From: a virus
Direction: 5' to 3' (one strand)
IMG/VR virus record: IMGVR_UViG_3300043774_000178
Location: 1-64,000 of that record
DNA: 64,000 bases
Below are positions 8,433-53,700 of this stretch, piece by piece (positions within the stretch are counted from its first letter, which is position 1; each line of letters begins with the position of its first letter). A model generated the notes under the pieces. The model did no database searches. It worked only from the letters and a program-made list of their open reading frames with translations, and was not told where the DNA came from. The position numbers were made by a program, and so were the translations under genes.

Positions 8433-8433
8433 A

Positions 8434-10074: not shown

Positions 10075-10109
10075 TATTATTTAGTATATTATAATATATT
10101 GTATATAGC

Positions 10110-11669: not shown

Positions 11670-11677
11670 CTAGTAAA

Positions 11678-12166: not shown

Positions 12167-12202
12167 AGATGTCGCAGTTTGTTGGTTTCTGTGACTAACA
12201 AA

Positions 12203-12241
12203 AAACCCTGGGTGCTACCTCTGCCCAGGGTTTGTATTTTC
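12203..12241 (+). terminator. intrinsic terminator hairpin
   Basis: AAACCCTGGGT-loop-GCCCAGGGTTT followed by GTATTTT. Confidence 0.7.
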
Positions 12242-12289
12242 TGTATATTTGCTATAGTAGATAATTTTTTGTATATTAAATAGTATGTA

Positions 12290-12871: not shown

Positions 12872-13542
12872 CAACTGTAGCACAAGCAATATCAAGAGTT
12901 AGAGCAACTCTAAAAGCTGTTAAGGAAGACCCATTCTTGACTGATAGAAACATTTACTTTTCTATTGTTAAGTACGGTAAGACTCTTTTAAAGAGAGAAG
13001 ATAACATGAACAAGCTTATGAGAATAAGCTCGTTGTTTTCTGTACTCCCTTATATGGAGCTTATTGATGTTGACAAAGTAGAAGCAGGTTGCACAGGAGT
13101 TTACTCAGGATGTTATTTTAAAAGAACAAAAGAGAAACTACCTCAACTATTTGAAGGAATGTTTGGACCGTTATTAAGATCTGTATCTTCTATAGATTCA
13201 ACTATAAGAATGTTTAGAACAGAACCAGCAACATATGTTTCTATAACTAGATCTACAAACTACAAGTATAATAACAAGATATACTTTTGGTATAGAGATG
13301 GTTATATCTATGTAGGTAATGTTGATTGGGATGCTATAAAAATAGAAGGAATATTTGAAGGAAATAAAGCTGACTTTTTATGTCCAGCTCCTGACAATGA
13401 ATGTAAGACAAATCAAGATTTAGCTTTACCATTCCCAGAATATTTATTTTCTGAGATTGAGCAGTTTGTTATAAAAGATCTTACTACAGCATTACAAGTT
13501 CCTCCTAACGGACCAGATGATTCACAAAATGCACTTAGATAA
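12868..13542 (+). CDS. tail ring protein
   Basis: TDRNIY...C...RTKEKLP...YFWYRDGYIY...IEGIFE...P.PEYL pattern of crAss ring proteins. Confidence 0.65.
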   Translation: MTTVAQAISRVRATLKAVKEDPFLTDRNIYFSIVKYGKTLLKREDNMNKLMRISSLFSVLPYMELIDVDKVEAGCTGVYSGCYFKRTKEKLPQLFEGMFGPLLRSVSSIDSTIRMFRTEPATYVSITRSTNYKYNNKIYFWYRDGYIYVGNVDWDAIKIEGIFEGNKADFLCPAPDNECKTNQDLALPFPEYLFSEIEQFVIKDLTTALQVPPNGPDDSQNALR

Positions 13543-20031: not shown

Positions 20032-21005
20032 TGGGATTCAATAAGAAAGAACTTTCTAAAGCTACAGCAAACTTAGATGCAAGAAAAGCTCAAAGTAAAC
20101 CTAGAGATATAATCTATGACCCAGCAGGTCAGTGGAAACATCCTGGACAACCTACTAGAATTCCAGGAGGTAATATTACTATGCAAGGTGTACCTTATCC
20201 AGTGATGGCTTATCCTAATGTAGGACAACCACAGATGATGTACCCAGAGCAAGATTATAACTTTGCAGGAGCAGATTATGTAGATGAGTATCCTCAAATG
20301 AAAAGAGGAGGGTCTAAGAAGTTCTCTAGAGATATAAGAGCAACTAATGTACTCTTTACAAAGAATCCATATCTAAAAAAGAAAAAGTCAAAGAAGAAAA
20401 AAATCTTTGATCCTAATGCTGCATATTATAAAAACGGTGGTGACTTTAGTGATGATATAAATAAACGCAGACAAGTTTTACGTGACTGGACTTATGGTAA
20501 ATCTATAGGTATGTTACAAGAACAAGATGGTGGGGAACTTCCTGCAGACTACCAAGAATTTATAAATTATTCAGAAACAGCTCCAGAGAATAGAAGACCT
20601 GCTCCAAATGCTGTATATGGTGATCCAAATGATTATGATCATTATGGTATGTGGGAAGCATTGGGTAAACCTAAGAACTTTGAAGAAGCTCTTCAAATGA
20701 ATCCTGATTGGACACCAGATGAGTATGATGGTATGTATCACGGATTTAGTGTTAATCCTAACACAGGAGTATTTCTTAAAGCAGGTAAACCAGGGTTTAA
20801 AGAAGGTGATACAACATGGATGGAAGTAGCTGGTCATTATCTTAGTCCAAGAGCACAAGTAGACACACCTGTATTTGACATAGACTTACAAAGATTTAGA
20901 TATATACCAAATGAAAATCAAGAAGAGTATATAGAAACAGAACTTACTCCAGAAGAAATAGAAGTATACAGACAAGGTGGGTATATAGTAGAAGAATTAG
21001 ATTAA
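20031..21005 (+). CDS. modular head-internal (cargo) protein with GG motifs
   Basis: An IPGGNITMQGVPYPV...DEYP module, then MKRGG, YKNGG, EQDGG and YRQGG. Confidence 0.55.
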   Translation: MGFNKKELSKATANLDARKAQSKPRDIIYDPAGQWKHPGQPTRIPGGNITMQGVPYPVMAYPNVGQPQMMYPEQDYNFAGADYVDEYPQMKRGGSKKFSRDIRATNVLFTKNPYLKKKKSKKKKIFDPNAAYYKNGGDFSDDINKRRQVLRDWTYGKSIGMLQEQDGGELPADYQEFINYSETAPENRRPAPNAVYGDPNDYDHYGMWEALGKPKNFEEALQMNPDWTPDEYDGMYHGFSVNPNTGVFLKAGKPGFKEGDTTWMEVAGHYLSPRAQVDTPVFDIDLQRFRYIPNENQEEYIETELTPEEIEVYRQGGYIVEELD

Positions 21006-37300: not shown

Positions 37301-38455
37301 CCTAAAGCTAAAGACTTACTTAAACCGGAATCATTTAGAATACCATTAAGTAAAGAAACTAAATCTATTGGTGCTGTTAAAACTATTACAGATACTCAGA
37401 GAGCTGAGATTAAAGGATTTGGTATTACTGATTCTCAAATTGAGCTAATGACTCAAAGAGAAATTGACTTACTTCTAAACCCAGAATTAAGGTCTGAGGT
37501 AATGATTGAAGACTTAAAGAAGAAATATAAAAATGCAGATACAGTTTTAGGAAAAACTATTCAAGAAAGAGTAGATACTATAGTACCAAGAAAAGATAGA
37601 GAAGCATCTATCATTCAAACAGGAAGACCTGTGTCAGAAGAAACAGTTAAGAAACTAAAGAGTCTAGGTTTTACTGATGAGATGATTGGTATAATGAGTG
37701 CAGAAGATATAGAAGAAGCTAAAAAGATCCGTAGAAAAGCAGATGCAAAAACTCTTATAGATAAGTATGCAGAACTTTTACCAAAAGAAGGATCTGAGGG
37801 TGACCAAGCTCCTCCTAAAAATTCTACTAATGCTAATCAGAATGTAGAAGAAAGTGCTGAACTAAGACAGTTTAGAGAAGGCTTAAGAGGACACCTAGCA
37901 AAAATGGATCTTATTGCACTAGATAAGTATGAAGCTGAGACTGTTGCAAACCTTATTAAAAACAAACAGATTACTGCTGAGTTTGCTATCATAGCGTCAG
38001 AAGAAATTCAAGCTAGAAGAGAAGAACTAAAACAAGGTGCACCATCTGAAGTAACTCCAGTTACTATTGAAAAAGGATCTGAATATGCGGTAGAAGTTAC
38101 TATCTTTGAAACAAGAAATCCTAATAATATTTTTGCAAAGCCTGGTGATGTTGTAAGAGTTGTAAGCTCTACTGAAAATAAAGTAGTAGTAAAGAACAGT
38201 AATAACAAACAAAAGACTTTAAGCTTTGAAGAGTTCAATAAAATGCTTATATTAAAAGAGAACGTAATGCAACCTAGTACTGATACAAGTGAAACTTTAA
38301 CTCCAGAAGAATCCTCTATAGTAGACGAATCTAATTCTGCAGCAATGGATCTATTAGATAGTCCAACTAGAATGGCAGAATTACAAAAAGAAGCTGAAGA
38401 TTCTAAAATAGAAGATCTGGAAAAAGATTTCTTAGACAGTATTGATGAATGTTAG
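31307..38455 (+). CDS. giant ejection protein with putative membrane segments and a PD-(D/E)XK nuclease domain
   Basis: 2382 aa. Hydrophobic Gly/Ala segments (AGLGLLTAATGGGAAPAW; AASGFFMGMFAGPL). Nuclease motif AGEIDL...IVDVKT...YELQQTTY at about 37040-37200. Confidence 0.7.
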   Translation: MATNDELFSPLDGLGTGYGKFDAPTPDVTGYTPFEGDRLKDPSINFPQTFFPPAPNIGSLTVPNQQIRTNVTGAPPRKAGPARGASPKDIVTSFNKMIKAQSQANPDNNYYAKIHSYDAGPAGPNFYKRYQAYGQETFDKIGFHPLRNNEAVFTEQTSGWDDFTRMLKHSAWPLFSRGFVSAPKSLFKAFQGDFSADTEDARVYEEAAAIGQSSRGGIGAFTSNLAMNFAYTAGIISEAIIEEAGLGLLTAATGGGAAPAWMASLANKGNQFKNLFRTLSKADNVVDASNIYRKSLKAMDNVDDTRRIWSAQKADKALNSGIGRFFNPVENTANAIMKGIKNEDNLTGLARAYTTGYNTVGGLYRDVRSINMALAEARLEGGMTQNDVYKELYNRYYEKTGRAPSDAEQELMIKQSKDAATTSMMWNTGLIYLSNKVVLDNIVGAGKGITGWTRGKIDDILDLKTGKVIKETEEVVLKSGKKFQKPKYKWEENTFKNKLLNIKKNPVSGTLSFAGTYLKGNIMEAGQEVAQEVIGDATKKYYVSTFKNEHLRTQQYATGLAKSAFDDLFSTSRGWETAASGFFMGMFAGPLNKSVELMSVGYDKYFNPEQYNEYKKVRDEYGKRIVNTLSSVDMNEFFNSRIWNYGVQGSMSDLRLADSEKLQRDAQDQAFITQMNTVLENDMMNHFIENLESYKGLTAEEFEEAFPNVPQGEGAKYIAKLDETIDRAKNLEKKYNFYKERFPDPVSAKDLEGLAPESKEYQNAQLLNEAWKVARYNGIFFSETFENVTKRMSGILDSVASQKLLKNASASDITVLFDPKLLANQADILRDEIDMMSKTEGTRPKDLLERKQKLEALDNYDKAVNTYLSFTMTKEAIAEKFINRAKMQGKELSDEELDSLVESEMSKRSESDQVEAAKQLEIAYKDYLKTLAGQTGDYVFDEQIDDSFIKLIDYYKLSDEAKLMNTYANLLMNPAGYLEQVEKNQEWMSELYNNRKEYYQEMVQEAIKAKESNDLLNFLASRNIYVSLDDFQRFLETGILPDEFYNDTNNTVIKRSNPEYIELARAFIKFNELNKQVIKAQSADETLRETLKNLDEKMMDEIEALEKSEVRNELGPIPTKKKGIGISDVMANVEDGQYADLIYMEGKDETQITVYRDGDVLKYNNKEGEEVNPKLKTKFISGVKYEIKLEPDAAEVEAIKEKYRAIKDLKVEEALAEKEKEQFEEDKFVEITPSTPIEEFPADLYNELYLMFEDYIDKTNIEVQDDEFTDRLANFIRTNSLAAEVIAEYNKNKKLEIATAPTGEVIVPTITTRDGKEVSVDELPEEEVRSYLNSFLSELKVLETKDKLEPQEQNRLYQIKRVADDLQKYVDSLDKTQFTEAQLATIEVLNQIKLKNEQLVRTPNGYIIDDTLHKRVTTEIQKLVSKGYQYTDIGKIRIAFNSTLGKTGLTVDSVDAFINKLREESPKGFSEYTYTELDQELKALAGQPTTAGTQADIERKSNESVKDFIERLFSNNYFSEVDGKQIFSLTQGRWGVVVNINGVQVPFYQSTSGTDTKVTGQWYPFFGDLGNWVIKGNSDDSNIGYGFKAIQNVQKFLNDNIKETDAIALSGIISTDVNQNKESLRSLDESKIKGNEKISLNKEATAKRLADVAGYSLEEGRKTKSDLELFELASKKIFAELAALEPKATENQVDRKAAVIEAGLGRELENIVRDRLRNEGVTQAERNKLTLTQEQSISLATEADYKTLLENNKRKLKEEEAKFEASQKEDFDPTTGEFETGENVAFYQNKIKSIEGIINIKPTAKPQFLTKAELRELVENLVQEKTYEDARIAGNYVDRAIRDFFAGRTPEFNEKYITKEAYDSLFGDSSAVDASGNRTSIGYLELAKQRLEEQGLYLYSEGLVLNDVDAVVAGEIDLIMVDRQGRVFIVDVKTGDATKWGNFNDPKNQYSKKEDYELQQTTYSNLLFNMTGLNSLVSLMPIEITKDKETGKILTASAPKAKDLLKPESFRIPLSKETKSIGAVKTITDTQRAEIKGFGITDSQIELMTQREIDLLLNPELRSEVMIEDLKKKYKNADTVLGKTIQERVDTIVPRKDREASIIQTGRPVSEETVKKLKSLGFTDEMIGIMSAEDIEEAKKIRRKADAKTLIDKYAELLPKEGSEGDQAPPKNSTNANQNVEESAELRQFREGLRGHLAKMDLIALDKYEAETVANLIKNKQITAEFAIIASEEIQARREELKQGAPSEVTPVTIEKGSEYAVEVTIFETRNPNNIFAKPGDVVRVVSSTENKVVVKNSNNKQKTLSFEEFNKMLILKENVMQPSTDTSETLTPEESSIVDESNSAAMDLLDSPTRMAELQKEAEDSKIEDLEKDFLDSIDEC

Positions 38456-38459
38456 TAAT

Positions 38460-41400
38460 ATGAAAATTACCTGTGCACTTTCACCCACTCAATTAGAGAA
38501 GTTATATAAACTTGTTTATAAAAATATAATCACTGCAGTAGAAAAAGGGGATACTACATTTGACCCTAATGTCTATATGCAGGATCTGTTTACTAAGATG
38601 GCTGATAATTCCTCAGAGGATAATGCCGCCAAGTTTATTCAACAGGTACCCATACTTTTAGTATCAATACAAGCTACTCCTAAAGTATTTAGAAGTGGTA
38701 TAAAGTTTCCTGAAGGCACAGACTTAAGAGAATTAGATTCTAGATATACTAATTCTGAAACAGGTATAGGTGAAATACTTAAAGACTTTGGATCATCAAA
38801 CATTAATGATCTTAGATCAAAGGTTCAAATGAATGCAAGGACTCAGTTTGATCCTACAGAAAGAGATCTTGAAGAACAAGAGATTCCAAGTGCACCAAGA
38901 CTAACATCATTCAACCCTAATACAGGAACCCTAATTGAGTTTCAACCTGTAAAGCCTGGTAAGAAAGCAGAAGATGTTCTGTTCCAAGAATCTATAAATG
39001 AAAATAGAACTACTATTTATACTACTATAAATAGATTAAGAGATGCTGTTGATCCTACTACACAACTAGTAAAAGATTTAGTATATCAAAATAGAACACT
39101 TAGATTAAAAGCAGTTCCTCTTGAAACTATTGACAGAGATTTACTTGATCAGACTACTTTAAAAGCAATTGAAAGATCACAAGTACTAAGAGCTGATAAA
39201 AAAACTCAAGCTGGTGTAGTTCAAACAGATAGTATGGTAGCATTAGTTGTTATTGATGCTGAAACAGGAGATTTTGTAAAGTTTGATGAGACCGGTGACA
39301 TAACAGATAATGTTGAAGGTAAGATAGTATATCAGTTCTTAAGACCTATAGCAAAGGATTCTAATGGAAAATATGTTGTTACTGATTTCTTTGCAAAAGA
39401 AAGAAGAATAGCTAAGCCTGACCTAGTTGCAACTAAGACATACTTTCCTGAAATGGGTATATCTTATGAGGAGTATCTTAAGCAAGTAGATAAAGAACAG
39501 CAAGAAGACTTTAAAAAAATAGAAGAACTTAGAAAAAAAGTTTTATCTGGAGAAGATATAGAACTTTCTATAATAAGTGTTACTGATGGTATTGCTCCTT
39601 CAGAAACTGGTATAAGACTTACTATACAAAAAATTAACGATAACTATTATGGTGATCTTAATTGGGAATCTATATTTAAAACAACAAGGATATTAAACAA
39701 GAAAGAAAAGGGATTAGGAGAAGGTGTTGCTGTTGTAGAAATAAAAGGTAAAGAATACGCAATAGATAGAAAAGACATACCTAATGATAAGGCAGAAGAA
39801 ATATCTTATGTATTAACAAATCCTAATATTCCTTTTGAAACAAGACTATCATTTTATCATCAGTTCTTTGGAGATAAGATATCACCTTCAGCTGTAAGTC
39901 ATAAGATAACTTATGATGTAGATACTAAAGAATTTAAGATCTTCATATATAATGAAACTTATGCTCAAAATAAAAACAGAAAAGAACCTAGAGGAATTGA
40001 TATATCGGATGCAGCATTAAAGAAAGCATCACCTGAGTTTTTAGAAAAATTAAGATATAATATAGAACAAAGATTAAAAAAAGGTAAGTCATCTGTTTCA
40101 GGAACAATGTATGCTGCTAAGATGAGTTATGTATCTGATTTATTTAAAGGTAATAAAGCATTCTTTACTTATGATATAAACACTCAGGAGTTTACACCAA
40201 CTAACTATACTAAGTTTATTACATCTCTTAACCCAGAAATTACTACAGCTCTGGAAGGAACTGAGAACTTTAATGCATCTATAGTATTTAACATGCCCTC
40301 ATCTATTGAGAGTAAGATTGAACAGACTAATAAAAATTTAAAAGCAGAAAAAGAAGATCCTGAATTAAGTGTAAAAGAAAACAAAGATGATTTAGTATCT
40401 TATCTTAAGACTGTTGGTGATGCTGAAACAGCATTAGTAGATACTCTTAATATTACAGAAAGTAAAAGTGGTAGCACTCTAACTTTTACATCTCCTTCTA
40501 ATGGATCTGAAATAACTGTAGGACTAGATCCAAAAGCTATTGATGAAAATTTAATACCTGAAAAAGAAGGTATAATTACATTAGGATTAGCTACAGTTGA
40601 AACAGATGACATATATGTAGAAGATGCAATAGAGGTTTTTCACAATGGTCAATTAATTGGATACGTTAGAGAAACTAGTACTCCTCAAGAAAGAGTAGAA
40701 AGAGAAAAATTTTACAAAGACAAAAAGAAAGAAATTCTAGCTCAGAGATTAGCAGAGCAAAATCAAATTCTTAACCCTACAAATGTTACTCAACCATCTG
40801 ATACAAAACAGAAGCCAGGTAAGAAAACAAAAATAGATCCTAGTAAATTCTCAGGTTTAAATAGAAGTAACTTACTAGATAATGGTGTCACTCAAGAGCA
40901 GATTACTGCTGCAGAGAAATGGTGGTCTTCACATCCACTAAATAAAGTTATTGGATTAGAGCACCTTACTAACATTGTTAATTCAAATGCTTTTGCAAGA
41001 TTTACTTCTTCTGCGCAGAAACTAACTGACCCTTCTTTACTAGGTAAAATAACTTTTTATAAAGGTGGTAGTTTAGTAGATATCTATCATGAAGCATGGC
41101 ATGCATTCTCTCAATTATATTTAACTAGAGATGAGAAGATAAAACTCTATGAGGAAGTAAGAAGAGCTACTCCAAAACTTGCTGATGCAAGCCAACGAGA
41201 AATAGAAGAAGAACTTGCAGAAGACTTTAGAACTTATGCTAAAAATCAAAAGGTAAAGAAAGACTCTCCTGTAAGAAACTCTTTGTTTAGAAAAATACTA
41301 AACTTTATAAGATCCTTTTTTGGAAAGAATCCTGCTAGTCAAGAAGTATCTAATAATCTATCTGATAATACAGTAGTAAAAGAACTGTATGATAAACTAT

Positions 41401-44400
41401 TTTTTGCTAATCAAAATCCTAGTTTATTAAATGACTATACTCCTCTTATTGACAATGTCATGTTTGACTCGCTAAATAGAGGTCCTCAGAGAGTAGATAA
41501 TAGAAAAGAACAAGCTTTGAGTAAAGCAGATGCAGATAAAGCAGTAGAAAGCTTAGATTCTATATTATCTGACTATATAGATGAGATCCATGACGTAAGA
41601 AAAAGTCAAGGAGATGCAAACTTAAAGTCTGGTAGTATTGCATTACTTTCAAGTCAAGTTGGTGAAGATGGTATAACTAATAAAGAAAGACTTTATGATT
41701 ATGCTAAATCAGAGTTTCAAGACAAACTCGAATATTGGCAAGATCAGCTAGGTGAAATATCTGGAGCTAACTTTAACAAGTTAAATTCTGTAGAAGAAAT
41801 AGAAAGAAATGCTATAGGTATAATTAGAAGTGAAAAAGGAAAACACAAATACTTTTTCTTAACTTCTCAAGTAGAAAATTTTGATAACCTAATACCTGAG
41901 TTAAAACGAGGTCAGAGAGTAAAAGGACAAGCATACTATAATATAAATGTAGTATCAGACTTCTATTCACATAAAAATATAAAAGTAGGTGACAGACCAA
42001 TAACTATTGCACTTGTATCAGATGTAAGAGATGCTGAGATACAATATGATAACTACATAAAAGGTGGAAATCAGGACGTTACTATTTTTGAGCAAAAAAA
42101 TCAACCGAACTTAGTACCTCTAACTCCTGAGCAACAAGCTATACAAAACAAAGTAAGATTGCTTGAGAAAGTTTTAGAGAACTGGGGTGATGCAAATACT
42201 GGTTTTGTAAAATATCATATGGAGAATAGTGACTTTGATATTATCAAAGAAACATTTGTTGAAGTAGAATATGATGAGGCTGGTGTAGAAGTAGATGAAA
42301 CAAGTCCTGAAGATGGTAAAGGTTCTGATGATACCTTCAATGATAAGACAGGTAAAGTATCATTAGAGAAACTAGCAAACAAAGAAACTGTATACCTACT
42401 AAAAAGTCTTTTTAAGATTGATAGAAAGACTGGTGAAACAATAGAAGATTCACTTGGATTTAAACAACGTGCAGACTATAGAGAAGTATGGAATGCAGTT
42501 GTAAGAGCAATGGGTGGAGAAAAGAATAGAGTTAAAGCTTATGAAAAACTAAAAAAAGCAGTATCTCATACTCCTGAATTAAAACAACTTATAGAGAAGA
42601 AGTTTCCTATGCCAGAGGGTATTACAAACCCATATGAGTTTAACATAAGCTCTTCATTCTGGCAAACATTCTCAAGACCAAGAGTACCTTATTTGCAGCT
42701 TACTGCATATATGAATGTAGAAAAAGTTTATGATCCTATATCAGGTTCAGAAACTTCAAAAGTTAGATCAGTAAACACTGAAGTTACTACAGCTTCTGTT
42801 GAGGTAAGTTCTACATTAAGAAAGTTTGAGACTAAATTTAAGACTGATCTTAATAATCCATATGTTACAAGAACAGCAAGTAATGAAACTCTATTAAAAG
42901 TACAGGAGGTAGCTAAAGCTTTTGCAAATAAGAAAACAGCAGATCTTAATGTTGCTGACTCATTTAATTTTGCAAGAGCTATAGGTTTCTATGTTGATGA
43001 TTTACTATCTATAAAGAAAGAACTTAAAGATAATCCGGGTCAATATGGGTTGCAATATATCTATGATGTTGTAAAAGGGTTTGCTGCAATAGAAGCTAAA
43101 GGTGCAGAAGCTACAGTAGAACAATCTAAGAAGTTATTAGAATTCAAAAGAAATCCTGTACAAGTATTATCTAGTGAGATTCCTAAAGGTATACTAGGAG
43201 ATAAGTCTGTTAACATGAGTACTAATGTTGATAGATTAGCTAAGCTACAAATTAACCTTGGTGTAGATTCTTCTAACTATTCAGTGTTTAGTGCTGATAG
43301 AAATAAGGTATTTGAGTTTATCAATGACCACTCTATAAGTAGAATGGTTGATGCTATAAATGATGTAAATAAGTTAACTGAGCTTTGGACAGAGTCAGAG
43401 TATAAGTACATGAGCTACTTGGATTGGAACAAAAATACATTTACTCAAAAGTCACAAATACTTAAAAGTCTATTTGATTTTACTGATCCAGAATTTGAGA
43501 AAAGAGAAGGTAAGTCACTCAAGTTATTTAATGACTCTGGTACTCAAGCTGTTATAAATGAAAATGGTAGGACTGAGTTTTTTACAGGAACTAATACTAC
43601 TTCACAAGATATCAATGGTAAGTTCATTCAAGAACTACACATGATGTTAAAAGGTGGTGTCCAAGAGTTTATTAGACACGCATCAAAGAAAACAGCACAA
43701 GGTGTAAAGGTAGATGGTGGAATAATAGGTGGTATTGAAAAAGGTATAGACCCTAATCTATATGTAGATATATCTATGTTCAAACCTGATGGTGCAGGTG
43801 TAAGCTATGCATTCAATCAAATACTATTACCATATATTACTGTAGAGTTTGATAGGATACAAAAGTTTAAAGCTAACAAAGAGAAGTATCTTAACTTCCT
43901 CGGATATAATAATAGAGTTGGTGGTACTAAAGAAAATCCTATTTATGCAGGAGAAGTATTCACAGCTTTTGATAATGTTATTACTGATAGTGTAAAACAA
44001 AAGTTGTATAATCTACCACTAGGTACAGATCTTAATGCGTACTTAAGAAGTAATCCTTCACTGAGATTAGAACTACAAAGAGATGTTGAACAGTACTTTA
44101 AAGAACAGACTCTTGATAATATCAGCATGCTTGAAGAGAACAAGTTTATAGACAGCTCTCTCTTTGATAAGTTAGGTATGCCTGCCCCTGTTAATGAAAC
44201 TCGTGAACAAAAACTAACAAGAGAAAAAGAGGCTGAAGCTTTGCTTGTAAAAGCATATACATACAACTCCTGGATACATAACTTTGAGACAATACATCTT
44301 TTCTATGGTGATATGGCTCAGTACAATCACATAAAAGAAGAGTTGCATAAGAGAAATACAGGATCTACTTCAGGTGGTATTAAGTTCTTATCAGATAAGC

Positions 44401-47400
44401 CTGCTCAAGACTTTATCAATAATAGTTTTAATCTTAAAACTTACGGTGCAAAGCTTGCTAAAGATTTAAAAGATGATAACTATAACTCTTTCTTCTTTGA
44501 CGGTACTTTAAACTCAGCAGTAATTCAGGATATAGAAAGAGAATCCGTTTACTTAACTGAGATAGAAGAAGCATTAAGAGAAGACTATACTGAGAGTCTT
44601 AAAAAGTTTAATTATACTGACAAGCAAGTTAAAGAAATAGTAGATAAGAGAATTAAGGAAGAGATAAAAGCATACAAGAAAATGACTGAAGGTGATGGTG
44701 CTGGATACATTACTCTTGATGCATATAGAACTCTTAAGAAATTATCTAATGAGTGGACTGATGATGTTCAGGAAAAGATTTATCAAGACATCATTAATGG
44801 AAGACCGGTTAAAGCAAAAGATATAAAAGAATTCTTCCCTGTATACAAACTTCAGTATTTTGGAAATATAGATACAGGAAAAGATAATCTTCCTGTTACA
44901 GCAATGCATAAGTTTGCACTTACTCCTTTGATACCAAGTGTATTTAAAGGTACAGAGTTAGAGAAGATGCATAAAGAAATGTTGAGAAACAATGTTCAGT
45001 ATGTAACATTCCAATCTGGTTCTAAAGTATCTGGTGTAACAAGCAATGGTAAAGTTGATGATATCTATGCAGACAGTGAGAGAAAGACTCTAAAAGATAA
45101 AATGGAGTTCACTCCTAACAAAATCTATTTAGAATATCTTAAAGATGTAACTAAAGTACCTAATAAGTTTAAAGAAACAATTACATATCCTACTCAGCTT
45201 AGAGGACTTCTTTTAGATGGTATCTATAATGAAGGAAACATAATTGATAAAGTATTTACAGAACCTGCAAATCAGTATAAGAATGCAGTTGATGGTTATT
45301 CAGAGTTGCTTAAGATTGAGTTGCTCAATGAAATAGGATATGAGTACGATGAGAAAACAGGTAAGTACACAGGGAATCTTCAGGACTTCCTTGAAATGGT
45401 TCAGAAAGAGTTAGAGAAAAGAGATCTTCCTGAACAACTTGTTAAGTTCGTAGGAGTAAATTTGGACAAGAGTCTAAGAACAGACTTATCTCTACACTTA
45501 GAAGCAGATACAATAGAAAAGATTCTTTTATCTGTAGTTCAGAAAAGACTTATTAAGCAGAAAGTAAAAGGAGAAGCTTTTGTACAGATACCTAGCTCTA
45601 TGACTAATGGGGGTTGGGGAAGTAAATTTAAGCTAGGTACAGTAGAGGACAGAAAGAAATTTATGGGTTCCAATACTCTTCCTTTCTATAAAAGAAATAA
45701 AGGAGGAAAGACATCTGCTATGAAAGTAGCTGTGGCTTTGCAAGGTGACTTTGAAAATTTACTTAAGCTTAAATATAATGATGAGGTAATAGGTGATATC
45801 AATACTCTAAATGAGGCAATTAAGGATGATGCTTGGTTAGAAAAACATAGAGAAGCTATAACACTTGCTGGAGCACGTATTCCTATTCAGAACCTTAACT
45901 CAATGGAATTTGCAGAGGTCTATCACTTCTTAGATCCTACTGCAGGTAACATGATTATAGTACCTACTGAGATTGTAGCTAAAGCAGGATCTGACTTTGA
46001 CGTTGATAAAATCTTCTTTAGTTTACCACACATTGATAAGAAAGGTAGATTTATTAAGACTAAGCTGACTAACCAAGAGTTAGAAGCTAAAATAAAAGCT
46101 GCAAAGAAACCTAAAGAAAAAGCTGCAGTTAAAGCTTTGATTAAAGAACAGAAACAAGCTTTAGAAAATAACCTCATAAGTACAACAAGAGGTATCCTAG
46201 AAGTAGATAAAAACTATTCAAACCTTGTAAGACCTAATGCTACATATCTAATGCAGGATATGGTAGAGTCCTTAGAAGATTATGTAGTTGACTACAGTAG
46301 GTATAATACTATGCACGATGAGGGTATAAGAATGTTTACTGATAATGACGGTAAACAGAAAAGAGTTATTAGTCCAACAAGAACACTTGAAGCTAGATAT
46401 AATTTACAGAAGCATCAGGTAAACATGGTAGGTAAAGATACTCTTGGTATTGTAGCTCTTGAAAACAAACAGCATCCTATTTGGAAATCTATAATGGCTA
46501 AGATGCCTCTTTTTTACAAAGAAGCAGTTTGGAGTAATGGATTAGGTAAGTATGTTGAAATACCTGAGATAGACAAGTTTATGTATCTCAGAATGAATCA
46601 TAATAAGATAGGTGATAATATCTCTATGTCATCCATGTATTCAAAAGATGGAGACAGAATATCAGATCTTATATCTCATATGATGAATGGTCTTTTAGAT
46701 GTAGAAAAAGATCCTTGGGTATTCTTTATTCAAGCTAACTTAGAACAGATACCTGTAATTAACTATTTACTTCAAGCAGGTGTACCTAAAAAAGAAGCAA
46801 TATACTTTGCTGCTCAACCTGCAGTAAGAGAGTATGCTAAAGTACAGAGAAACCTTAAGAGTACATTCTCTGCATTCAATAGTGCAACACCTATCAATGA
46901 AGCAATGATAGCAGCACAAGCTGCAAAAATTGTATTTGAAAATAATTTTGGTAATAGCTCTTTAGGTGAACAAGCTAGAGATGAGCGTCTTGGTCAAGTA
47001 TTTGACAAGTTTAAAAACAAAGATGTTTATATAACTTATGGTGTAAAAGGTACAAGTGAAGTTTATGAGGGTCCTCTTAAAGGTTTTGAAGACTTTTATT
47101 TTACATATAATGTAGCTAATAAAGTTCCAATTTTTATTAAAGGTATCAATGAAGCAAAAACAGGAAGAATATTATTTCAGCCTTCAGTAAATCCTGTAGC
47201 ATCAAGTAACATTTACTATAGTTCAAAAATTGTAAATGGTGCAAAAAACTTTACAGAAGAAGAGTTATATGATAATATTAAGAATAACAGATTTGATCTA
47301 GGATCATTCTTACATTTCTTAGAAATTGAGCAACAAATAAAAGGTATCCAAGCTGTTAAAAGACAAGCTAATCCAGATACTAAACTTGTAAAAACTGCAT

Positions 47401-50400
47401 ATCAAATTAACAAGCAAGAACTTGCATATGAGAATGTAGTTGATTCTTCTAAAGTAGATAATGATTTACCAGTAGCTATTAGGGAAAGATCTATCTTAAG
47501 CTCATTCTATGCTAGTAAACTAACAAAAGATTTAGTAACTCCTGTATTTCCTTTAAGATTAAATAATGAGATAAATGACTTTATCACAAATAGATTAAAT
47601 TTTGGAAGTCAGAGAATCAAGAAAAGATTTGGTGCAGGAGTAGATGGTCAAGAGAAGTTTACATCTAGCTTTAACAATGGTGTAGTTAATTATATATTCC
47701 AGAACTATCTTTCTAACTATATAGATAATAGTGGTAAAGCTACAGTTCTCCCAACTGTTTATAGGGAGATGACAGTAATCAGTGCTCCATTTAAAGAAGG
47801 AGACAATGAGTACTTTATACATGTAGACAAAGCAAATAAAACTATTAACGTAGACCTTGAGGAGTTAAAAGATATCTATGATAATGGTTTATACTTAAGA
47901 AGCAATAGAGAAGAAGGTAGCTACAATGATATAGGTTTATATAGCTTTATTGATGCTAACAATCCTTTTGATACATTTGAGTCCTTTGTACGATACACTA
48001 TTGAAGAAGCACACCTTAGAAGCATATATACTCCTGAGAGTCTTAAGGGTAATAAAACTTATGAAAGATATGAGAAAATAGTTAAGAGAGGTCTTAAAGA
48101 TGCAAAGCAATCAGAAATAGATGCTAAAGCATTTAATGCATATATAGCACAGAGAGCATTACTAAATGTTTACAATCCTAATGCTATAATGAAAACAGAT
48201 CTCTTCTCATACTCAGATCAAATCATGAGTGTAATAGAAGACTATCAAGGAACATCTCTCATGGATACGTATCCTATACTAAATCAATTTGAGATAGCAC
48301 AGTTCCCAGCAAAAAGAGGAGTTAAACTTATTACACTAAAAGATAAGAGTTTAGCAGAAGGTGATGTAGCATTTGGATACTATCAACAACTAAGACAACT
48401 TGGTGATATAAATATCAGAAAAGTAAATGACCCAGTAGAGAACAAAAGAATCAGTGATCTATTTAAGGTCTTTACTAATATGATGATATATCAACATGGT
48501 ATAGGATATAGTCCATATGGATTCCCTAAAGTACTAGACCCGGACCCATTTGTAGAAGTAATGAGAAATGCCAGTGCTAGATTTATGCAGGGTAATCTAA
48601 ACAATGATACTTTATCTAGTATATATGAAACAGTAGTATCTGATAGTCCATTACAAAAAGACTTTAGAAACTATGTAAAAACTGTTGAAGAGTTTAATAA
48701 AGGTGTTAAAGAAATAGATAACAGTTCTGAAAACCCAGAAGAGATAGAAGGAGAAAGTGAAGGTACATCTACTCAACCAACAGCCCAACCTGCTACAGGA
48801 GGAACAATTAGTTCCACTATATATGAACTTAATCCTAATATTACAGAAAAAGAAATTAAGAAGATATATAACAACTATGTTGCTCTAATGAATCTTAGGA
48901 GAGAAGGTAAACAGATAAGTTATAAAACTTTTAAAAGTCTTCTGGACTCTTACCAAGTATATAAATATAAAGACACTTATATATTTGGACAGTATGATAA
49001 TAAGAATGCGGTGTTTATTACAAGGATGAATAGTTCTCCAACTAGTAAAGAATTGCTAGCAGAAGCTATACCAAATCTTGTAAGTAAGGGATTAGACTTT
49101 ATGTCTTTTGTACCTAAAGATTATGCAGAAAAATTAGTAAGAAGTGGATATACATCTTCTACTGACTCATATTCTTATAATTTCAAGGGAGAAAAGATGC
49201 AAAAGTTTGCTGTAGCATCCAATCCTTTAATCTTCCAAAAAGTATTTAACAAGAAGTTTGATGAAGTAACTGCAGAAGAAATAGAAGATTATGCTGACTC
49301 AGTTGAGTTAAAGTATAAACCGGTTGAAATAAATGCTGATCTTATACAACAAGCAGGTAATGATCTTTCTAAAGTCTTAGAAACTTATCTTGGACAATTT
49401 GGAATACGTGTTGATGACATAAATGTTATAAAGGATAAACTAAAAGTTGATGAATTAGGTTTTGCAGATATACTATCTAAAGTTGCATATGTAAAAGATA
49501 AAAAAGATTTACCACCAATAGCTGGAGAATTCATTGCTTACATGATGCAGTATAATCCTTTAGTTCAGAGTATTGTAAATGATCTGATTCAGACTAATGC
49601 TATACTTATACCTAAAGACAGTTATACATTTAACGAGCAAGGGAATAAAGTTTATAACTATAAGTCTCTTGATAAAACAGAGTTCTTTAAATACATAGGT
49701 AAGTTAATCTCAGAAGATCTACAAAACAAACTTGAGGGTAACTATAATAAGTCTCTAGTACAGAAAATCAAAGACTTGATAAAAACATTCTTTGACTACA
49801 TTAATAGAACTCATATTGATAGGATAAATACTAATGTAGGTATCATATCAAATAACATCCTTCAACAGAACAAGAAGTTGATCACTTCATCTTTATATAA
49901 ACCTGGAGCATTTGGGCAACCAACTCAACAGGTAGATATTGAGTTTGCATTAAAACAAGATCAATTTGGAGCATCTATTATATACTCTTTAGCAAATGAA
50001 GGATTCATACTTACAGGAAGTACTGCACTATCAGAACAAGGTACAATCCTAAGACCTGATGAGAATCCTCTCCATGATATTGATTGGGTAAGTCCATTTA
50101 ATAGAAAGGAAACTGAAGAGAAGTTCTTAAAAGTATATCCAGATGCTGTTAAAGTAAGAGACATATATGGGGAAGGTTATATAACTGATAGCTATCTTAT
50201 TGCACCTGAAGGACACTCAATAGCTAATTATAAAGCTGATAACTTTAACGGTAAAATAATTATGAATTCCTATGATGTACTAGATAGTAGTGGTGCTGTA
50301 GTAGGTACATACCGACTACAGAAACAAGAGAATAATAATCAAATGGAAGAAGTTGTTACAGGTGTAGAAGGTAAAGTTATTGACTTCTTTAGTTATGAAA

Positions 50401-50672
50401 ACTATAATGACTTTAACAGAGGAAAAGCTTTTGAGTATACTTCAAAACAAGGTACAGTAATTAAGCTTGCAAACTGGAAAGACATCTTTGGTGCCAAGTT
50501 AGCATGGGCTAGATATAAGGACATATGGGATTACAATAGATTTATTCCAAATGAAAATATAGAAAAGATAACTGGTAACCAGCCTGGTGCAAATTTAAGT
50601 TCTTATGAAAATAAAAATGCTCCTGATGGACTTCCTCCAATTGATAGAACATCCCCTTCATGTGGAGGGTAA
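38460..50672 (+). CDS. virion-packaged DNA-dependent RNA polymerase (crAss-type) fused to a zincin protease and C-terminal accessory domains
   Basis: Catalytic AGSDFDVDK (45993-46007) preceded by RIPIQ; also ELHKR and GDGAGYIT motifs. Zincin HEAWH...EEELAEDF at 41088. The probable start is ATG 38460 (the ORF track starts at 38442). Confidence 0.85.
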   Translation: MKITCALSPTQLEKLYKLVYKNIITAVEKGDTTFDPNVYMQDLFTKMADNSSEDNAAKFIQQVPILLVSIQATPKVFRSGIKFPEGTDLRELDSRYTNSETGIGEILKDFGSSNINDLRSKVQMNARTQFDPTERDLEEQEIPSAPRLTSFNPNTGTLIEFQPVKPGKKAEDVLFQESINENRTTIYTTINRLRDAVDPTTQLVKDLVYQNRTLRLKAVPLETIDRDLLDQTTLKAIERSQVLRADKKTQAGVVQTDSMVALVVIDAETGDFVKFDETGDITDNVEGKIVYQFLRPIAKDSNGKYVVTDFFAKERRIAKPDLVATKTYFPEMGISYEEYLKQVDKEQQEDFKKIEELRKKVLSGEDIELSIISVTDGIAPSETGIRLTIQKINDNYYGDLNWESIFKTTRILNKKEKGLGEGVAVVEIKGKEYAIDRKDIPNDKAEEISYVLTNPNIPFETRLSFYHQFFGDKISPSAVSHKITYDVDTKEFKIFIYNETYAQNKNRKEPRGIDISDAALKKASPEFLEKLRYNIEQRLKKGKSSVSGTMYAAKMSYVSDLFKGNKAFFTYDINTQEFTPTNYTKFITSLNPEITTALEGTENFNASIVFNMPSSIESKIEQTNKNLKAEKEDPELSVKENKDDLVSYLKTVGDAETALVDTLNITESKSGSTLTFTSPSNGSEITVGLDPKAIDENLIPEKEGIITLGLATVETDDIYVEDAIEVFHNGQLIGYVRETSTPQERVEREKFYKDKKKEILAQRLAEQNQILNPTNVTQPSDTKQKPGKKTKIDPSKFSGLNRSNLLDNGVTQEQITAAEKWWSSHPLNKVIGLEHLTNIVNSNAFARFTSSAQKLTDPSLLGKITFYKGGSLVDIYHEAWHAFSQLYLTRDEKIKLYEEVRRATPKLADASQREIEEELAEDFRTYAKNQKVKKDSPVRNSLFRKILNFIRSFFGKNPASQEVSNNLSDNTVVKELYDKLFFANQNPSLLNDYTPLIDNVMFDSLNRGPQRVDNRKEQALSKADADKAVESLDSILSDYIDEIHDVRKSQGDANLKSGSIALLSSQVGEDGITNKERLYDYAKSEFQDKLEYWQDQLGEISGANFNKLNSVEEIERNAIGIIRSEKGKHKYFFLTSQVENFDNLIPELKRGQRVKGQAYYNINVVSDFYSHKNIKVGDRPITIALVSDVRDAEIQYDNYIKGGNQDVTIFEQKNQPNLVPLTPEQQAIQNKVRLLEKVLENWGDANTGFVKYHMENSDFDIIKETFVEVEYDEAGVEVDETSPEDGKGSDDTFNDKTGKVSLEKLANKETVYLLKSLFKIDRKTGETIEDSLGFKQRADYREVWNAVVRAMGGEKNRVKAYEKLKKAVSHTPELKQLIEKKFPMPEGITNPYEFNISSSFWQTFSRPRVPYLQLTAYMNVEKVYDPISGSETSKVRSVNTEVTTASVEVSSTLRKFETKFKTDLNNPYVTRTASNETLLKVQEVAKAFANKKTADLNVADSFNFARAIGFYVDDLLSIKKELKDNPGQYGLQYIYDVVKGFAAIEAKGAEATVEQSKKLLEFKRNPVQVLSSEIPKGILGDKSVNMSTNVDRLAKLQINLGVDSSNYSVFSADRNKVFEFINDHSISRMVDAINDVNKLTELWTESEYKYMSYLDWNKNTFTQKSQILKSLFDFTDPEFEKREGKSLKLFNDSGTQAVINENGRTEFFTGTNTTSQDINGKFIQELHMMLKGGVQEFIRHASKKTAQGVKVDGGIIGGIEKGIDPNLYVDISMFKPDGAGVSYAFNQILLPYITVEFDRIQKFKANKEKYLNFLGYNNRVGGTKENPIYAGEVFTAFDNVITDSVKQKLYNLPLGTDLNAYLRSNPSLRLELQRDVEQYFKEQTLDNISMLEENKFIDSSLFDKLGMPAPVNETREQKLTREKEAEALLVKAYTYNSWIHNFETIHLFYGDMAQYNHIKEELHKRNTGSTSGGIKFLSDKPAQDFINNSFNLKTYGAKLAKDLKDDNYNSFFFDGTLNSAVIQDIERESVYLTEIEEALREDYTESLKKFNYTDKQVKEIVDKRIKEEIKAYKKMTEGDGAGYITLDAYRTLKKLSNEWTDDVQEKIYQDIINGRPVKAKDIKEFFPVYKLQYFGNIDTGKDNLPVTAMHKFALTPLIPSVFKGTELEKMHKEMLRNNVQYVTFQSGSKVSGVTSNGKVDDIYADSERKTLKDKMEFTPNKIYLEYLKDVTKVPNKFKETITYPTQLRGLLLDGIYNEGNIIDKVFTEPANQYKNAVDGYSELLKIELLNEIGYEYDEKTGKYTGNLQDFLEMVQKELEKRDLPEQLVKFVGVNLDKSLRTDLSLHLEADTIEKILLSVVQKRLIKQKVKGEAFVQIPSSMTNGGWGSKFKLGTVEDRKKFMGSNTLPFYKRNKGGKTSAMKVAVALQGDFENLLKLKYNDEVIGDINTLNEAIKDDAWLEKHREAITLAGARIPIQNLNSMEFAEVYHFLDPTAGNMIIVPTEIVAKAGSDFDVDKIFFSLPHIDKKGRFIKTKLTNQELEAKIKAAKKPKEKAAVKALIKEQKQALENNLISTTRGILEVDKNYSNLVRPNATYLMQDMVESLEDYVVDYSRYNTMHDEGIRMFTDNDGKQKRVISPTRTLEARYNLQKHQVNMVGKDTLGIVALENKQHPIWKSIMAKMPLFYKEAVWSNGLGKYVEIPEIDKFMYLRMNHNKIGDNISMSSMYSKDGDRISDLISHMMNGLLDVEKDPWVFFIQANLEQIPVINYLLQAGVPKKEAIYFAAQPAVREYAKVQRNLKSTFSAFNSATPINEAMIAAQAAKIVFENNFGNSSLGEQARDERLGQVFDKFKNKDVYITYGVKGTSEVYEGPLKGFEDFYFTYNVANKVPIFIKGINEAKTGRILFQPSVNPVASSNIYYSSKIVNGAKNFTEEELYDNIKNNRFDLGSFLHFLEIEQQIKGIQAVKRQANPDTKLVKTAYQINKQELAYENVVDSSKVDNDLPVAIRERSILSSFYASKLTKDLVTPVFPLRLNNEINDFITNRLNFGSQRIKKRFGAGVDGQEKFTSSFNNGVVNYIFQNYLSNYIDNSGKATVLPTVYREMTVISAPFKEGDNEYFIHVDKANKTINVDLEELKDIYDNGLYLRSNREEGSYNDIGLYSFIDANNPFDTFESFVRYTIEEAHLRSIYTPESLKGNKTYERYEKIVKRGLKDAKQSEIDAKAFNAYIAQRALLNVYNPNAIMKTDLFSYSDQIMSVIEDYQGTSLMDTYPILNQFEIAQFPAKRGVKLITLKDKSLAEGDVAFGYYQQLRQLGDINIRKVNDPVENKRISDLFKVFTNMMIYQHGIGYSPYGFPKVLDPDPFVEVMRNASARFMQGNLNNDTLSSIYETVVSDSPLQKDFRNYVKTVEEFNKGVKEIDNSSENPEEIEGESEGTSTQPTAQPATGGTISSTIYELNPNITEKEIKKIYNNYVALMNLRREGKQISYKTFKSLLDSYQVYKYKDTYIFGQYDNKNAVFITRMNSSPTSKELLAEAIPNLVSKGLDFMSFVPKDYAEKLVRSGYTSSTDSYSYNFKGEKMQKFAVASNPLIFQKVFNKKFDEVTAEEIEDYADSVELKYKPVEINADLIQQAGNDLSKVLETYLGQFGIRVDDINVIKDKLKVDELGFADILSKVAYVKDKKDLPPIAGEFIAYMMQYNPLVQSIVNDLIQTNAILIPKDSYTFNEQGNKVYNYKSLDKTEFFKYIGKLISEDLQNKLEGNYNKSLVQKIKDLIKTFFDYINRTHIDRINTNVGIISNNILQQNKKLITSSLYKPGAFGQPTQQVDIEFALKQDQFGASIIYSLANEGFILTGSTALSEQGTILRPDENPLHDIDWVSPFNRKETEEKFLKVYPDAVKVRDIYGEGYITDSYLIAPEGHSIANYKADNFNGKIIMNSYDVLDSSGAVVGTYRLQKQENNNQMEEVVTGVEGKVIDFFSYENYNDFNRGKAFEYTSKQGTVIKLANWKDIFGAKLAWARYKDIWDYNRFIPNENIEKITGNQPGANLSSYENKNAPDGLPPIDRTSPSCGG

Positions 50673-50702
50673 TTAGTATCTTAGTATAATAATCTTTAAG
50701 AA

Positions 50703-53700
50703 ATGCCTTGCAGAATACAAATTGAAGAAAAAATAAGGACTCAAGCAGAAGATGCTATCAGACCTTATAGAGGAAGAGACTACATAAAGCTAAGAGTAGA
50801 AGCTAGTAACGTAAATAAAAGATATGGTTACCCTGTTGTACAAGTATCACAATGGGAAGCTGACATCTATGATGTAAATGTAAATGTTCCTGAGCCTTTG
50901 ATTGAAGAGTACTATCAGAATGAACTCAGAAAAGAAGAGGAAGAAGCAAGACAAAGTCAGATAGAAGATGCTGAAAGAGCAGGTGAAATATATAATGATA
51001 GATACCTGTTTGATAATAAACAACTTGTCTTAAAGACAATGGCAGAGCAAGGGGTTGATGACTATGATGAAGTCATGAGATCTCTTAAAGAAGATAGAAT
51101 AATGCAAGTAGCCAAACTCCTGGGAGAAAGATTCCAGAAAGCATTTGGTATACCACATGAAGTTATCACAGCAGCACAAGCAAGAGAGTTATTAAGAGGT
51201 ACTAATATACCTTACACAGGTGAGGCAGCATTCTATTATGGGAATGTTATATATGTAGTAGAAGGTAATATGAAACCTAGTGCAATACTTCATGAGTATG
51301 CACACCCTTTTATTCAAGCATTAGAAAAAGATAATCCACAGTTATTTGAAAGATTGTTTTACAATCTAGCTACCTATGATGTAGGTCAACAAATCATTCA
51401 AGAGATAGAGTCTAAGTACCCTGAGCTTGAAGGAGATACGCAAAGATTTAAACAAGAAGTTTTAGTTACTGCACTTGAGAGAGCAGCACTAGATAACTTA
51501 GCTGAAATAGAAAAGAATGATCCTGACTTTGACAACTTCATTTCTCAGTTATTATATGCTATAAAGAAGATAATAAGAAAGCTTGTAGATAAAGTAAACT
51601 TAAAAGAGCTTAGTCCTAATACTACAATGGAAGAGCTTGCTGATATGTTTCTTGATCCACAGTTTGTAATTGAAGTTCCTAAGTTCTCAGAAGATTCCTT
51701 TGTATACTTTAAAAAGAATCTTAGTGATTTTACTACACAGCTTCAAGACATAAAGTATGATTCTCTAATTGATACAATTAATAGAGTACATCAGGAAGCT
51801 AAGTATGAGATTGCAGCAATTAAAGCAGCACCTTTTAGATTAACAAAAGAACTTTCTGGTAAGGATGGTATAAAATTATTAAGAGGTGTAGAAGGAAGTT
51901 TAAAAAACTTTCAGACATATGAAAAAGATCCATCAAAAGCTGATCCTCAAGTAGTAGCTGATGCTATGTTAGACCATACGGAAGAGTTTAATAAAAGAGC
52001 ATTAGCATTGATTAACAGCATGAATGAGATGGAAGTCTTTGCTGAGAATATTGAGAAGGTTCTTGATGAGATGAAAGAAAACAAGGAGCACTTTACTTCT
52101 GTAGGTATCTCCAAGATAATGTACTTCAAAGATTTTATAGCAAGACAAAGTGAGTTCATAGATGAGATAAAGGAAATATCCGGGCTCAAGAAAACAAATG
52201 AGTTCTATAAGAAACTTAACTCTATTGACAATACACTACAGGGTGCATCAAAACAGATTAAGAGATTACAAAGAGAGTTTGTAACAGACTTCTTTGGTAA
52301 ATCTACTAATCTTATGACTACTAATCTGGAAGAAGGTATAAAGGAAAGGATTACTAAGGTATTTAAAGCAGATGGTCTTAGTGATGAGATGATTAATGAG
52401 TTTTACAAAACAGTAATTAATACTCCAAACGGTAAAACTATTACAATTAAAGATGCAAACTATCCTCTCAATCCTAAGAGAGCTCAGAGACTAATCAATG
52501 AAGTAAATGAATACTTTGCTAAAAGACTTGGTAAAGAACAGATAGATGATTTTATAGAAGGGAGAAGAGATGACTTAGGTTTCTTTAGTGCATGGATTAC
52601 TCCTTATGCAAATATTGATGATCCTCTAGTAGGTTCATTTGCAAACTTTATAAAAAGAGAACTAAAGAAAGCAGAGAATAAAAGTTTAAGACAAGCAAAT
52701 GATATTGCTCAAAGAACTTTTCAGTTACTTAAGGATGTAGGATATAATCCTAATAGTACAGGGCAGCTAGCTAAGATGGTTTTATTTACAGATAAGGTAG
52801 GTACCTTAAATGATAAAGGAGAGTATGAAGAGTTTGAGGTTAGAAGTTTCATGGACAAGTTTAAAAACTGGAGATATGAAAGAGGAAAACTTCAGCATGA
52901 GTTTGATGAGGCTAGAGAATCTAAAGATAAAGATGCAATTAAAAAAGCTTATGATGCTCTTTTAGAGTTTGATGAGAAGTACATGCATAGAAGGTATAAG
53001 AAAGAGTACTATGATTTACAAAAGATTTGGAAAGAAGGAGCAAGAGTAATTGACCCCTTTACAAAGGAAGAGATAGTTGTTTCTAAAGAAGATGCATTTC
53101 AGGCATGGTTAGAAAGACAAACAGCACTAGATAAGTTATCAGTTGTAAAGAATGTACACTTTACTGAGTTAGAAGATGTAGAAGGTTTCTCAATGGCTGA
53201 TGCAGCTAATGCTGAATACCAAAGATTATTTGATGTATATAATCCAGACAATACACCTAAGACTGGTGAAGAGCTTAGAAAAACTTTATTAAGAAGATTC
53301 TACAGATCTGAATCAAGAAAGTTCTATGAGTATCCTATAAGTATGGATAGAGTACAGCAAGATCTAGATAACTTTATAATTAAACTTGCTGGTGAAGGCA
53401 TCACATTAGAAAACAATGAAGAAAAGTTTAATGAAAAACTTGAGAAGTTTATAAGCGTAAACTTCAGAACAGCATATACAGATGAGTACTATTCTGAAAA
53501 AAGAAGAATACTATCTGATATTAGAGCAATCAACAATAGAGCAAAAGCTAATCAAGATATTCTAGATAAAAGAGAAGACTTAAGTAAACAGTTATTTGAG
53601 TTAGTAAATCTTGTACTTGATAAGAATGGTCAACCTAATGGTATTGAGTTTACTCCTGAGCAGATAAAAAGAGTTAAGACACTAGAAGAAGAAATAGCTA

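Follow-up and report, generated by a model that had tools for sequence, protein, structure and literature searches.

How are several giant virion proteins, one of them an RNA polymerase, held together and delivered in order through a narrow phage tail? Crassviruses are the most abundant human gut phages. The DNA analysed here (the window) comprises positions 1 to 64,000 of the IMG/VR virus record IMGVR_UViG_3300043774_000178; all counts and coordinates refer to this 64-kb window, the whole record being 114 kb. The + strand of the window carries a series of large genes, the last three of which encode giant proteins, designated A, B and C, that resemble crassvirus capsid cargo. In these proteins cysteine is found only near the ends that face each other in gene order (the A C-terminus and B N-terminus, and the B C-terminus and C N-terminus). 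From comparative sequence evidence, we consider it rather likely that A, B and C are joined head to tail by pairwise inter-protein disulfides. The passage of crassvirus cargo proteins through the narrow tail is stated as an open question in the available text of two studies (PMC10172136, PMC13434306), and the protein to be moved, including an RNA polymerase, is close to a megadalton.

The features concerned are as follows (Cys codons and the Cys-free protein located by script count, the catalytic motif by alignment):

28402..31317, + strand: 971-amino-acid (aa) Cys-free protein, 5' of A and outside the putative chain, marking the chain start
31307..38455, + strand: protein A, 2382 aa, first member of the putative chain
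38450..38452, + strand: codon (TGT) for the C-terminal Cys2382 of A (...SIDEC, stop)
38460..50672, + strand: protein B, predicted virion-type two-barrel RNA polymerase, 4070 aa from MKITC, middle member of the putative chain
38472..38474, + strand: codon for the N-terminal Cys5 of B (MKITC)
45993..46007, + strand: DFDVD catalytic motif of the RNA polymerase, B residues 2512-2516
50661..50663, + strand: codon for the C-terminal Cys4068 of B, position -3 (...SPSCGG, stop)
50703..56564, + strand: protein C, 1953 aa, last member of the putative chain
50709..50711, + strand: codon for the N-terminal Cys3 of C (MPCR)

Cysteine content of the window

Together, A, B and C contain 4 Cys in 8,405 residues, at residue 2382 of A (the last), residues 5 and 4068 of B (the latter at -3, counting back from the C-terminus) and residue 3 of C. 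The remaining open reading frames (ORFs) of the window have a mean Cys content of 1.99%, at which ~168 Cys would be expected in A-C (probability of 4 or fewer, ~5e-66); the probability that four Cys lie no more than 5 residues from exactly those four termini is ~8e-12. Cys is also absent from the 971-aa protein, a 1671-aa protein (21065-26080) and a 324-aa protein (20031-21005).

An earlier note, made by manual scan of the sequence, had placed the lone Cys of the 2382-aa protein at its last residue, those of the RNA polymerase at 5 and -3 only and that of the 1953-aa protein at residue 3, and had described the rest of these roughly 8,400 residues and the 971-aa protein as Cys-free. The script count agrees on each point, with 0 further Cys in the 8,405 residues. 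The same note had observed that the Cys lie at facing ends in gene order, with the free ends lacking them, and that outer structural proteins are very Cys-rich; the four sites were confirmed, and two outer proteins have 40 Cys in 546 residues (8434-10074; 7.3%) and 11 in 162 (11678-12166).

Within the outer virion region (5925-14582), the reverse of the cargo block in this respect, another protein (7648-8190) has 9 Cys in 180 residues. The Cys-rich outer proteins suggest a particle surface that may be heavily disulfide-bonded or metal-binding. In the otherwise Cys-free cargo block, a 748-aa protein (26090-28336) has 10 Cys, all in residues 375-476, including 433/436, 457/460 and two CxC pairs, with a zinc-ribbon-like look. 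Composition was also compared for 20031-56564: His is scarce in the chain proteins (0.73%) and cargo proteins (0.61%) relative to other ORFs (1.39%), Trp is scarce in the chain proteins (0.62%) and less so in the cargo (0.91%, versus 1.07% in other ORFs), and the chain proteins are enriched in Lys and Glu.

Identity of proteins A, B and C

Protein B is, judged by its sequence, a crAss-type virion RNA polymerase of the DFDxD two-barrel kind. Its core matched phi14:2 gp66 by BLASTP (E=1e-21 over ~930 residues), with GSDFDVDK opposite GSDFDIDK, and the catalytic D2512, D2514 and D2516 are invariant in 24 homologues. A phmmer search with the B core against PDB sequences gave no match. B also has a zincin-type HExxH motif, YHEAWH (residues 876-881; window 41085-41102), invariant in the same number of homologues, and the polymerase protein itself seems to carry a metalloprotease-like domain. 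Its MKITC start is backed by a relative (L001, 80% identical), in which the ATG overlaps the preceding stop (ATGA); in the window, the A stop overlaps a possible earlier B start, the genes being closely packed.

Protein A is, by position and weak sequence similarity, the orthologue of phi14:2 g067 and crAss001 gp47: it matched g067 with E=1e-10 over a 74-residue block. C matched phi14:2 g065 weakly (E=8e-4), and both have a zincin-like HExxH motif, HEYAH at residues 197-201 of C (window 51291-51305) aligning with HEIMH of g065. Pfam searches returned only a PD-(D/E)XK nuclease match in A (residues 1824-1940) and a LysM domain in C (residues 1640-1665; window 55620-55697), and PHROGs gave no match for the four cargo proteins 5' of A. 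A tblastn search with a capsid-region protein against a phage collection also gave no match. Toward the C-terminus of C, near residue 1800 (window ~56090-56150), lies a hydrophobic, membrane-span-like segment, VTEIAGVIVLGLAIGMLFGY. Together with the LysM domain it would fit a role at the cell envelope, and C, with its LysM, zincin-like motif and hydrophobic segment, may be the envelope-facing end of the chain.

The gene order A-B-C provides the flanking genes that characterise the Crassvirales virion RNA-polymerase cargo block, and the two-barrel DFDxD giant homologous to gp66 provides its polymerase. Downstream of C the coding strand switches, and no small + strand ORF is present as a possible fourth member.

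Conservation of the terminal cysteines

The layout is found in three cultured phages:

phi14:2: g067 (1797 aa), Cys at the last residue; g066, Cys at 3 and -2; g065, Cys at 3
crAss001: gp47 (262.5 kDa), Cys at -3; gp50 (276.9 kDa), Cys at 5, 1334 and -9; gp49 (154.5 kDa), Cys at 5
DAC15: A, B and C with the same layout as in crAss001 and phi14:2

Conservation in orthologues, named beforehand by the earlier note as a check on its proposal, therefore holds in phi14:2 and crAss001, and it holds across the wider families. Exactly one Cys, in the last 1-8 residues, was found in 79 of 81 A homologues, and the two without Cys are on contigs that barely exceed the gene; the C-terminal Cys column is invariant in the A-family alignment (A2). 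In all 35 C homologues, the most distant of them 25% identical, a Cys lies at residue 3-7, and the rest of the sequence has almost none. B homologues have Cys at residue 3-5 and in the last 8 residues, with Cys5 invariant in two alignments (A1 and A3). A full-library HMMER search with the B core yielded 143 further cluster representatives: 117 have both terminal Cys, most of the others being visibly truncated or mis-started, and 138 have the C-terminal one (homologues without it include P0228, P0272, P0312 and P0321). Internal Cys amount to 52 in the 500,663 residues of these representatives. The C-terminal 650 residues of B consist of variable accessory modules; the terminal Cys is nevertheless kept. 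Around the terminal Cys generally, the neighbouring residues vary and the Cys itself stays.

Junctions between the genes were surveyed by an alignment-based scan of IMG/VR, which gave 79 loci holding the whole block and 110 unique junctions. Both facing Cys are present at 109 junctions, with the N-terminal Cys at positions 3-6 and the C-terminal Cys at -1 to -8. At the lone exception (L050), a poly-A frameshift conceals an MVNC start; the run of ten A (L050 10001-10197) shifts the frame ~60 codons into the polymerase gene and reflects an assembly error or else a slippery site. The 196 unique chain proteins of the survey have 15 internal Cys in 512,038 residues (0.003%). The free ends served as negative control, with Cys at 0 of 49 A N-termini and 0 of 46 C-termini of the last protein. 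Not one Cys occurs in the 45,974 residues of the homologues of the 971-aa protein from 48 loci.

Intergenic gaps at the surveyed junctions range from -9 to 920 nucleotides, and gene A of crAss001 and DAC15 runs on the strand opposite to B and C. Overlapping translation signals, or a nucleotide-level constraint at the junctions, therefore cannot explain the pattern.

The free chain ends are conserved in their own right (window 31307-31420 and 56440-56561; L014-L092). Many A N-termini read F-S/N-P-L-D-x-L-G-P-E-Y/F-G, and the C-terminus of the last protein is usually W..YFL..G..G...P..A-I/V-K.F-E/Q. These motifs may be docking signals for the portal or capsid.

Fusions, splits and module shuffling

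Lineages in which the genes are fused or further divided bear directly on whether the facing Cys are partners. In Intestiviridae, B and C are fused (p-crAssphage gp44, crAss002 gp33, Rudgehvirus, cr271 gp48; 4,070-4,620 aa), with B in the N-terminal half and C at the C-terminal end by blastp. These fusions keep Cys3 and have no C-terminal Cys, and the protein upstream has Cys at -2 (crAss002 gp33 is annotated from 32 codons too far upstream, its MSC start lying inside). In Suoliviridae it is A and B that are fused (cr50 gp059, cr1 gp76 and cr10; order by blastp): there is no N-terminal Cys and no Cys at the seam, the C-terminal Cys is kept, and the protein that follows begins with Cys at 3-5. 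Flavobacterium phage FpV4 gp32 (4287 aa), with one Cys, at -2, is read as another A+B fusion; blastp confirms its B part only, the A-like half having no hit.

Two natural splits (L060 and L023) have a free-standing protein of 655 or 762 aa between B and C, with Cys at both ends. Homologous segments are part of B or C in other phages, and the module's tail agrees with the usual B tail right up to the final residue. A boundary in IAS virus (gp055/gp056) resembled a split without partner Cys; its sequence is N-filled and unreadable.

The earlier note had proposed fusions and splits as a check, and they behaved accordingly: fusions are without the junction pair and the splits have one. Across these sequences, Cys are gained and lost in pairs, one pair per polypeptide break, as would be expected if facing Cys are partners. 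Directly observed are the Cys pattern, the extent to which it is conserved and the way in which it covaries with fusion and split.

The same ~400-residue module was found inside the C-terminal region of B, inside the N-terminal region of C, or free-standing with two Cys; from these alignments, accessory effector modules are shuffled along the chain. The regions concerned are:

L060, 21945-23912
L023, 8617-10905
L082, 17794-25314
L071, 18148-26043
L080, 7202-19294

Comparison with known ejection systems

A disulfide of this kind is known from the pre-ejectosome of cyanopodophage A4 (Anabaena phage A-4L), where cryo-electron microscopy of the virion showed a bond between gp27 Cys1715 and gp26 Cys5 (PNAS 2025; PMC12002296). 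The C-terminal helix of gp27 sits in a cleft of gp26 and is fixed there by the disulfide, within an ordered, folded, pentameric assembly inside the capsid (PMC12002296). In the A4 sequences, gp27 (1717 aa) has a lone Cys at -3, gp26 (1114 aa) a lone Cys at 5 and gp29 none. The pair is kept in the Saffermanviridae Pf-WMP3, Pf-WMP4 and TR020 (L094-L096), the upstream protein having a lone Cys at -2 or -3 and the downstream one Cys5. A4 thus shares with the window consecutive large ejection proteins that are otherwise Cys-free, with a Cys near one C-terminus followed by one at about residue 5, and the sequence signature is, in this one analogous system, matched by a real disulfide. In A4 a single link joins two T7-like core proteins, with no RNA polymerase involved, whereas the crAss arrangement would be a multi-link chain. 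In the available text of the A4 paper, the bond is treated as a local stabiliser, and there is no mention of Cys depletion, conservation or fusion/split behaviour (PMC12002296). No sequence or fold link between crAss and A4 proteins was found, and A4 is therefore taken as an analogy, not as a homologue.

Among cultured crassviruses, gp47, gp49 and gp50 of crAss001 are described as capsid cargo thought to exit partly unfolded, and its tail as containing disulfides, in the available text of PMC10172136; proteins of the phi14:2 g067-g066-g065 type are likewise given as virion cargo in that of the phi14:2 preprint (bioRxiv 10.1101/2020.03.07.982082). In both relatives the evidence for packaging comes from proteomics. 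The cargo blocks of both phages have orthologous giants with the same terminal-Cys layout as the window. Protein B is nearly twice as long as its counterpart in cultured crassviruses, with the HExxH domain and the variable C-terminal accessory modules.

N4-like phages (Schitoviridae) also have an injected virion RNA polymerase and partner proteins that are almost Cys-free. Suppression of Cys in their ejection proteins gp50, gp51 and gp52 is attributed, in the available text of PMC11445570, to passage through the oxidising periplasm. The N4 polymerase is a single chain of 3,500 residues with zero Cys and a T7-like fold, whereas the window has three chains with Cys at facing ends; the Cys-free single-chain polymerase of the Schitoviridae (N4 gp50-52) operon is not found in the window. 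Depletion alone does not explain why Cys are kept precisely at the facing ends. The papers that could be searched, among them PMC10172136, PMC11445570, PMC13434306, PMC12002296 and the phi14:2 preprint, mention no terminal Cys or covalent link in crassvirus cargo.

Structure prediction and thiol enzymes

The A tail has the pattern of an acidic amphipathic helix with Cys at its end, and the first segment of B is a basic amphipathic one; these facing ends look complementary, like a docking pair. In an AlphaFold2 model of B residues 1-400 (predicted local distance difference test, pLDDT, 81), Cys5 is in a flexible tail before a helix (residues 9-28). For complex prediction, the input was the window's own B residues 1-250 with the last 90 residues of A only. 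The pair scored 0.58, versus 0.00 for the best control, with runs agreeing in at least 43% of contacts and a partner pLDDT of at least 51. In the calibration of such predictions, 51 of 78 solved complexes and 2 of 108 mismatched pairs attained the mark; at scores of 0.60 or below, only 5 of the 78 solved complexes did so, together with all 4 passing mismatches (of 180). The best structural match of the B N-terminal model was to designed helical proteins (VIA Z 6.2). The thiol oxidase family Erv1 gave no match in the genome, a negative that carries no information, as the family matched 0 of 14 control genomes too.

Proposed explanation

In the mechanism that we propose, A, B and C would be synthesised as individual polypeptides and then packaged in the capsid as cargo. 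Most likely they would dock head to tail through their complementary ends, after which the Cys pairs would oxidise and lock the links. Disulfides between A Cys2382 and B Cys5, and between B Cys4068 and C Cys3, would give a linear tethered unit of 8,405 residues. Oxidation would probably take place in the assembled or released virion, because the genome encodes no thioredoxin. With other Cys purged, wrong or loop-forming disulfides could not arise, and with links 3-6 residues from an N-terminus and 1-8 from a C-terminus the joint would be thin, like a short side stub. The tether would replace the peptide bond of the fused lineages and give a 1:1:1 ratio and a fixed order. We infer from the comparative evidence that a bond forms between facing Cys, that this bond is a disulfide, and that it plays a part in co-packaging or ordered ejection.

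Near-terminal Cys and the purge of others would also suit a chain that passes through a narrow channel. A, B and C might then exit the capsid as a single, mostly unfolded thread of ~8,400 residues strung together by disulfides, in fixed order, and be cut into active enzymes by host cytoplasmic thiol reductases; we put forward this single-thread exit tentatively, as possible and not as probable.

Several observations weigh against joining by disulfides or against its extension to a thread. The available text of Bayfield et al., in which reduced and non-reduced virions were analysed by mass spectrometry, has nothing on these proteins. The A-B complex prediction supports the link only weakly. The N-terminal domain of B showed no clear fold likeness to A4 gp26, Foldseek with the B 1-400 model giving no match at E<=0.001. 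No thioredoxin match was found in this genome. The purge of Cys is not absolute, as several internal Cys occur in proteins of gut Steigviridae and Intestiviridae (IAS, cr271, p-crAssphage). Virions are assembled in the reducing cytoplasm and many of the hosts are anaerobes, which makes the timing of any oxidation hard to place.

Among other explanations, the chief alternative as regards function takes the disulfides as real but as static staples of a folded cargo complex in the capsid, the proteins separating or being reduced before or during exit, with no single thread. The A4 bond, which stabilises a helix in its neighbour's cleft, is of this kind (PMC12002296), and the A tail and B N-terminal domain look like such a docking pair; against this, no reductant is known in the virion or periplasm that would open the bonds before exit, and a staple could sit anywhere in an interface, whereas strict near-terminal sites and a total purge fit a translocated linear chain. 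We regard static staples as credible but unlikely. A metal ion (Zn, Fe or Cu) bridging the facing Cys in place of a disulfide could form in the reducing cytoplasm before packaging and would thereby explain how links arise during assembly, and the pairing pattern fits any two-partner bridge. Each junction, however, has two thiols with no conserved His or further Cys nearby, His is depleted (0.73% against 1.39%), and the analogous A4 pair is a disulfide (PMC12002296); we rate a metal bridge as improbable. One metal node that holds the four Cys of all termini together is excluded, as fusion at one junction removes one pair while the other stays intact. The earlier note had proposed joining end to end by disulfides or metal bridges: the joining itself is supported by the comparative tests (orthologues, fusions, splits, free ends and likeness to A4), whose pairing pattern would fit either kind of bridge. 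The note's further idea, that the chain is threaded unfolded in a fixed order and freed in the reducing cytoplasm, corresponds to the single-thread exit put forward tentatively above.

Slightly less probable again is that the terminal Cys act singly, in acylation, in attachment to the portal, capsid or other cargo, or as a nucleophile in processing of the ends. Such roles would suit the lone terminal Cys of p-crAssphage gp47, crAss002 gp30, Rudgehvirus g49 and FpV4 gp30, as well as the conserved HExxH protease motifs of B and C, but independent tags would be expected on free ends too, where none were found (0/49 and 0/46), and splits and fusions add or remove Cys by twos. We judge it very improbable that the proteins are joined into a true polyprotein, intein-like or by native chemical ligation. 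Least weight of all, and hardly any, is given to chance or annotation, in which disordered ends simply tolerate Cys or an overlap of start and stop signals imposes it. The overlap of the A stop with a possible upstream B start, in tightly packed genes, would fit this; it is refuted, however, by the persistence of the pattern where gene A has the opposite orientation (crAss001, DAC15) and across the whole range of gaps, and by the facing pair at all 110 surveyed junctions, the MVNC start behind the frameshift included, against 0 of the 95 free ends, while flanking residues vary. A lipoprotein-type N-terminal Cys was considered and rejected, there being no signal peptide and the Cys lying at residue 3-6.

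Lone cysteines in other cargo proteins

Other cargo-block proteins of relatives have a lone Cys near one end, as follows:

L004, 5588-8161: p-crAssphage gp47
L006, 6393-8066: crAss002 gp30
L012, 5950-8223
L007, 6054-7850: FpV4 gp30

In crAss002 gp30 and Rudgehvirus g49 (two of four), the lone Cys belongs to an R-C-G-G motif that precedes a basic tail. The last residues of p-crAssphage gp47 are ...KQSCR, and B of the window also ends in ...SCGG.

Implications for crassvirus biology

If true, a conserved covalent tether would explain the fixed stoichiometry and order of the three proteins, their fusion in some families and separate genes in others, and the exchange of accessory effector modules. 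The tether would, in addition, connect the three-protein crAss system with N4 and its single-chain polymerase. Should the cargo leave as a single thread, reduction would be a built-in timer that frees the RNA polymerase only inside the cell, and the terminal Cys pairs would be a plug-in rule by which new effector modules join the injected chain. For uncultured phages, the terminal-Cys rule offers a simple sequence mark for the annotation of injected cargo proteins.

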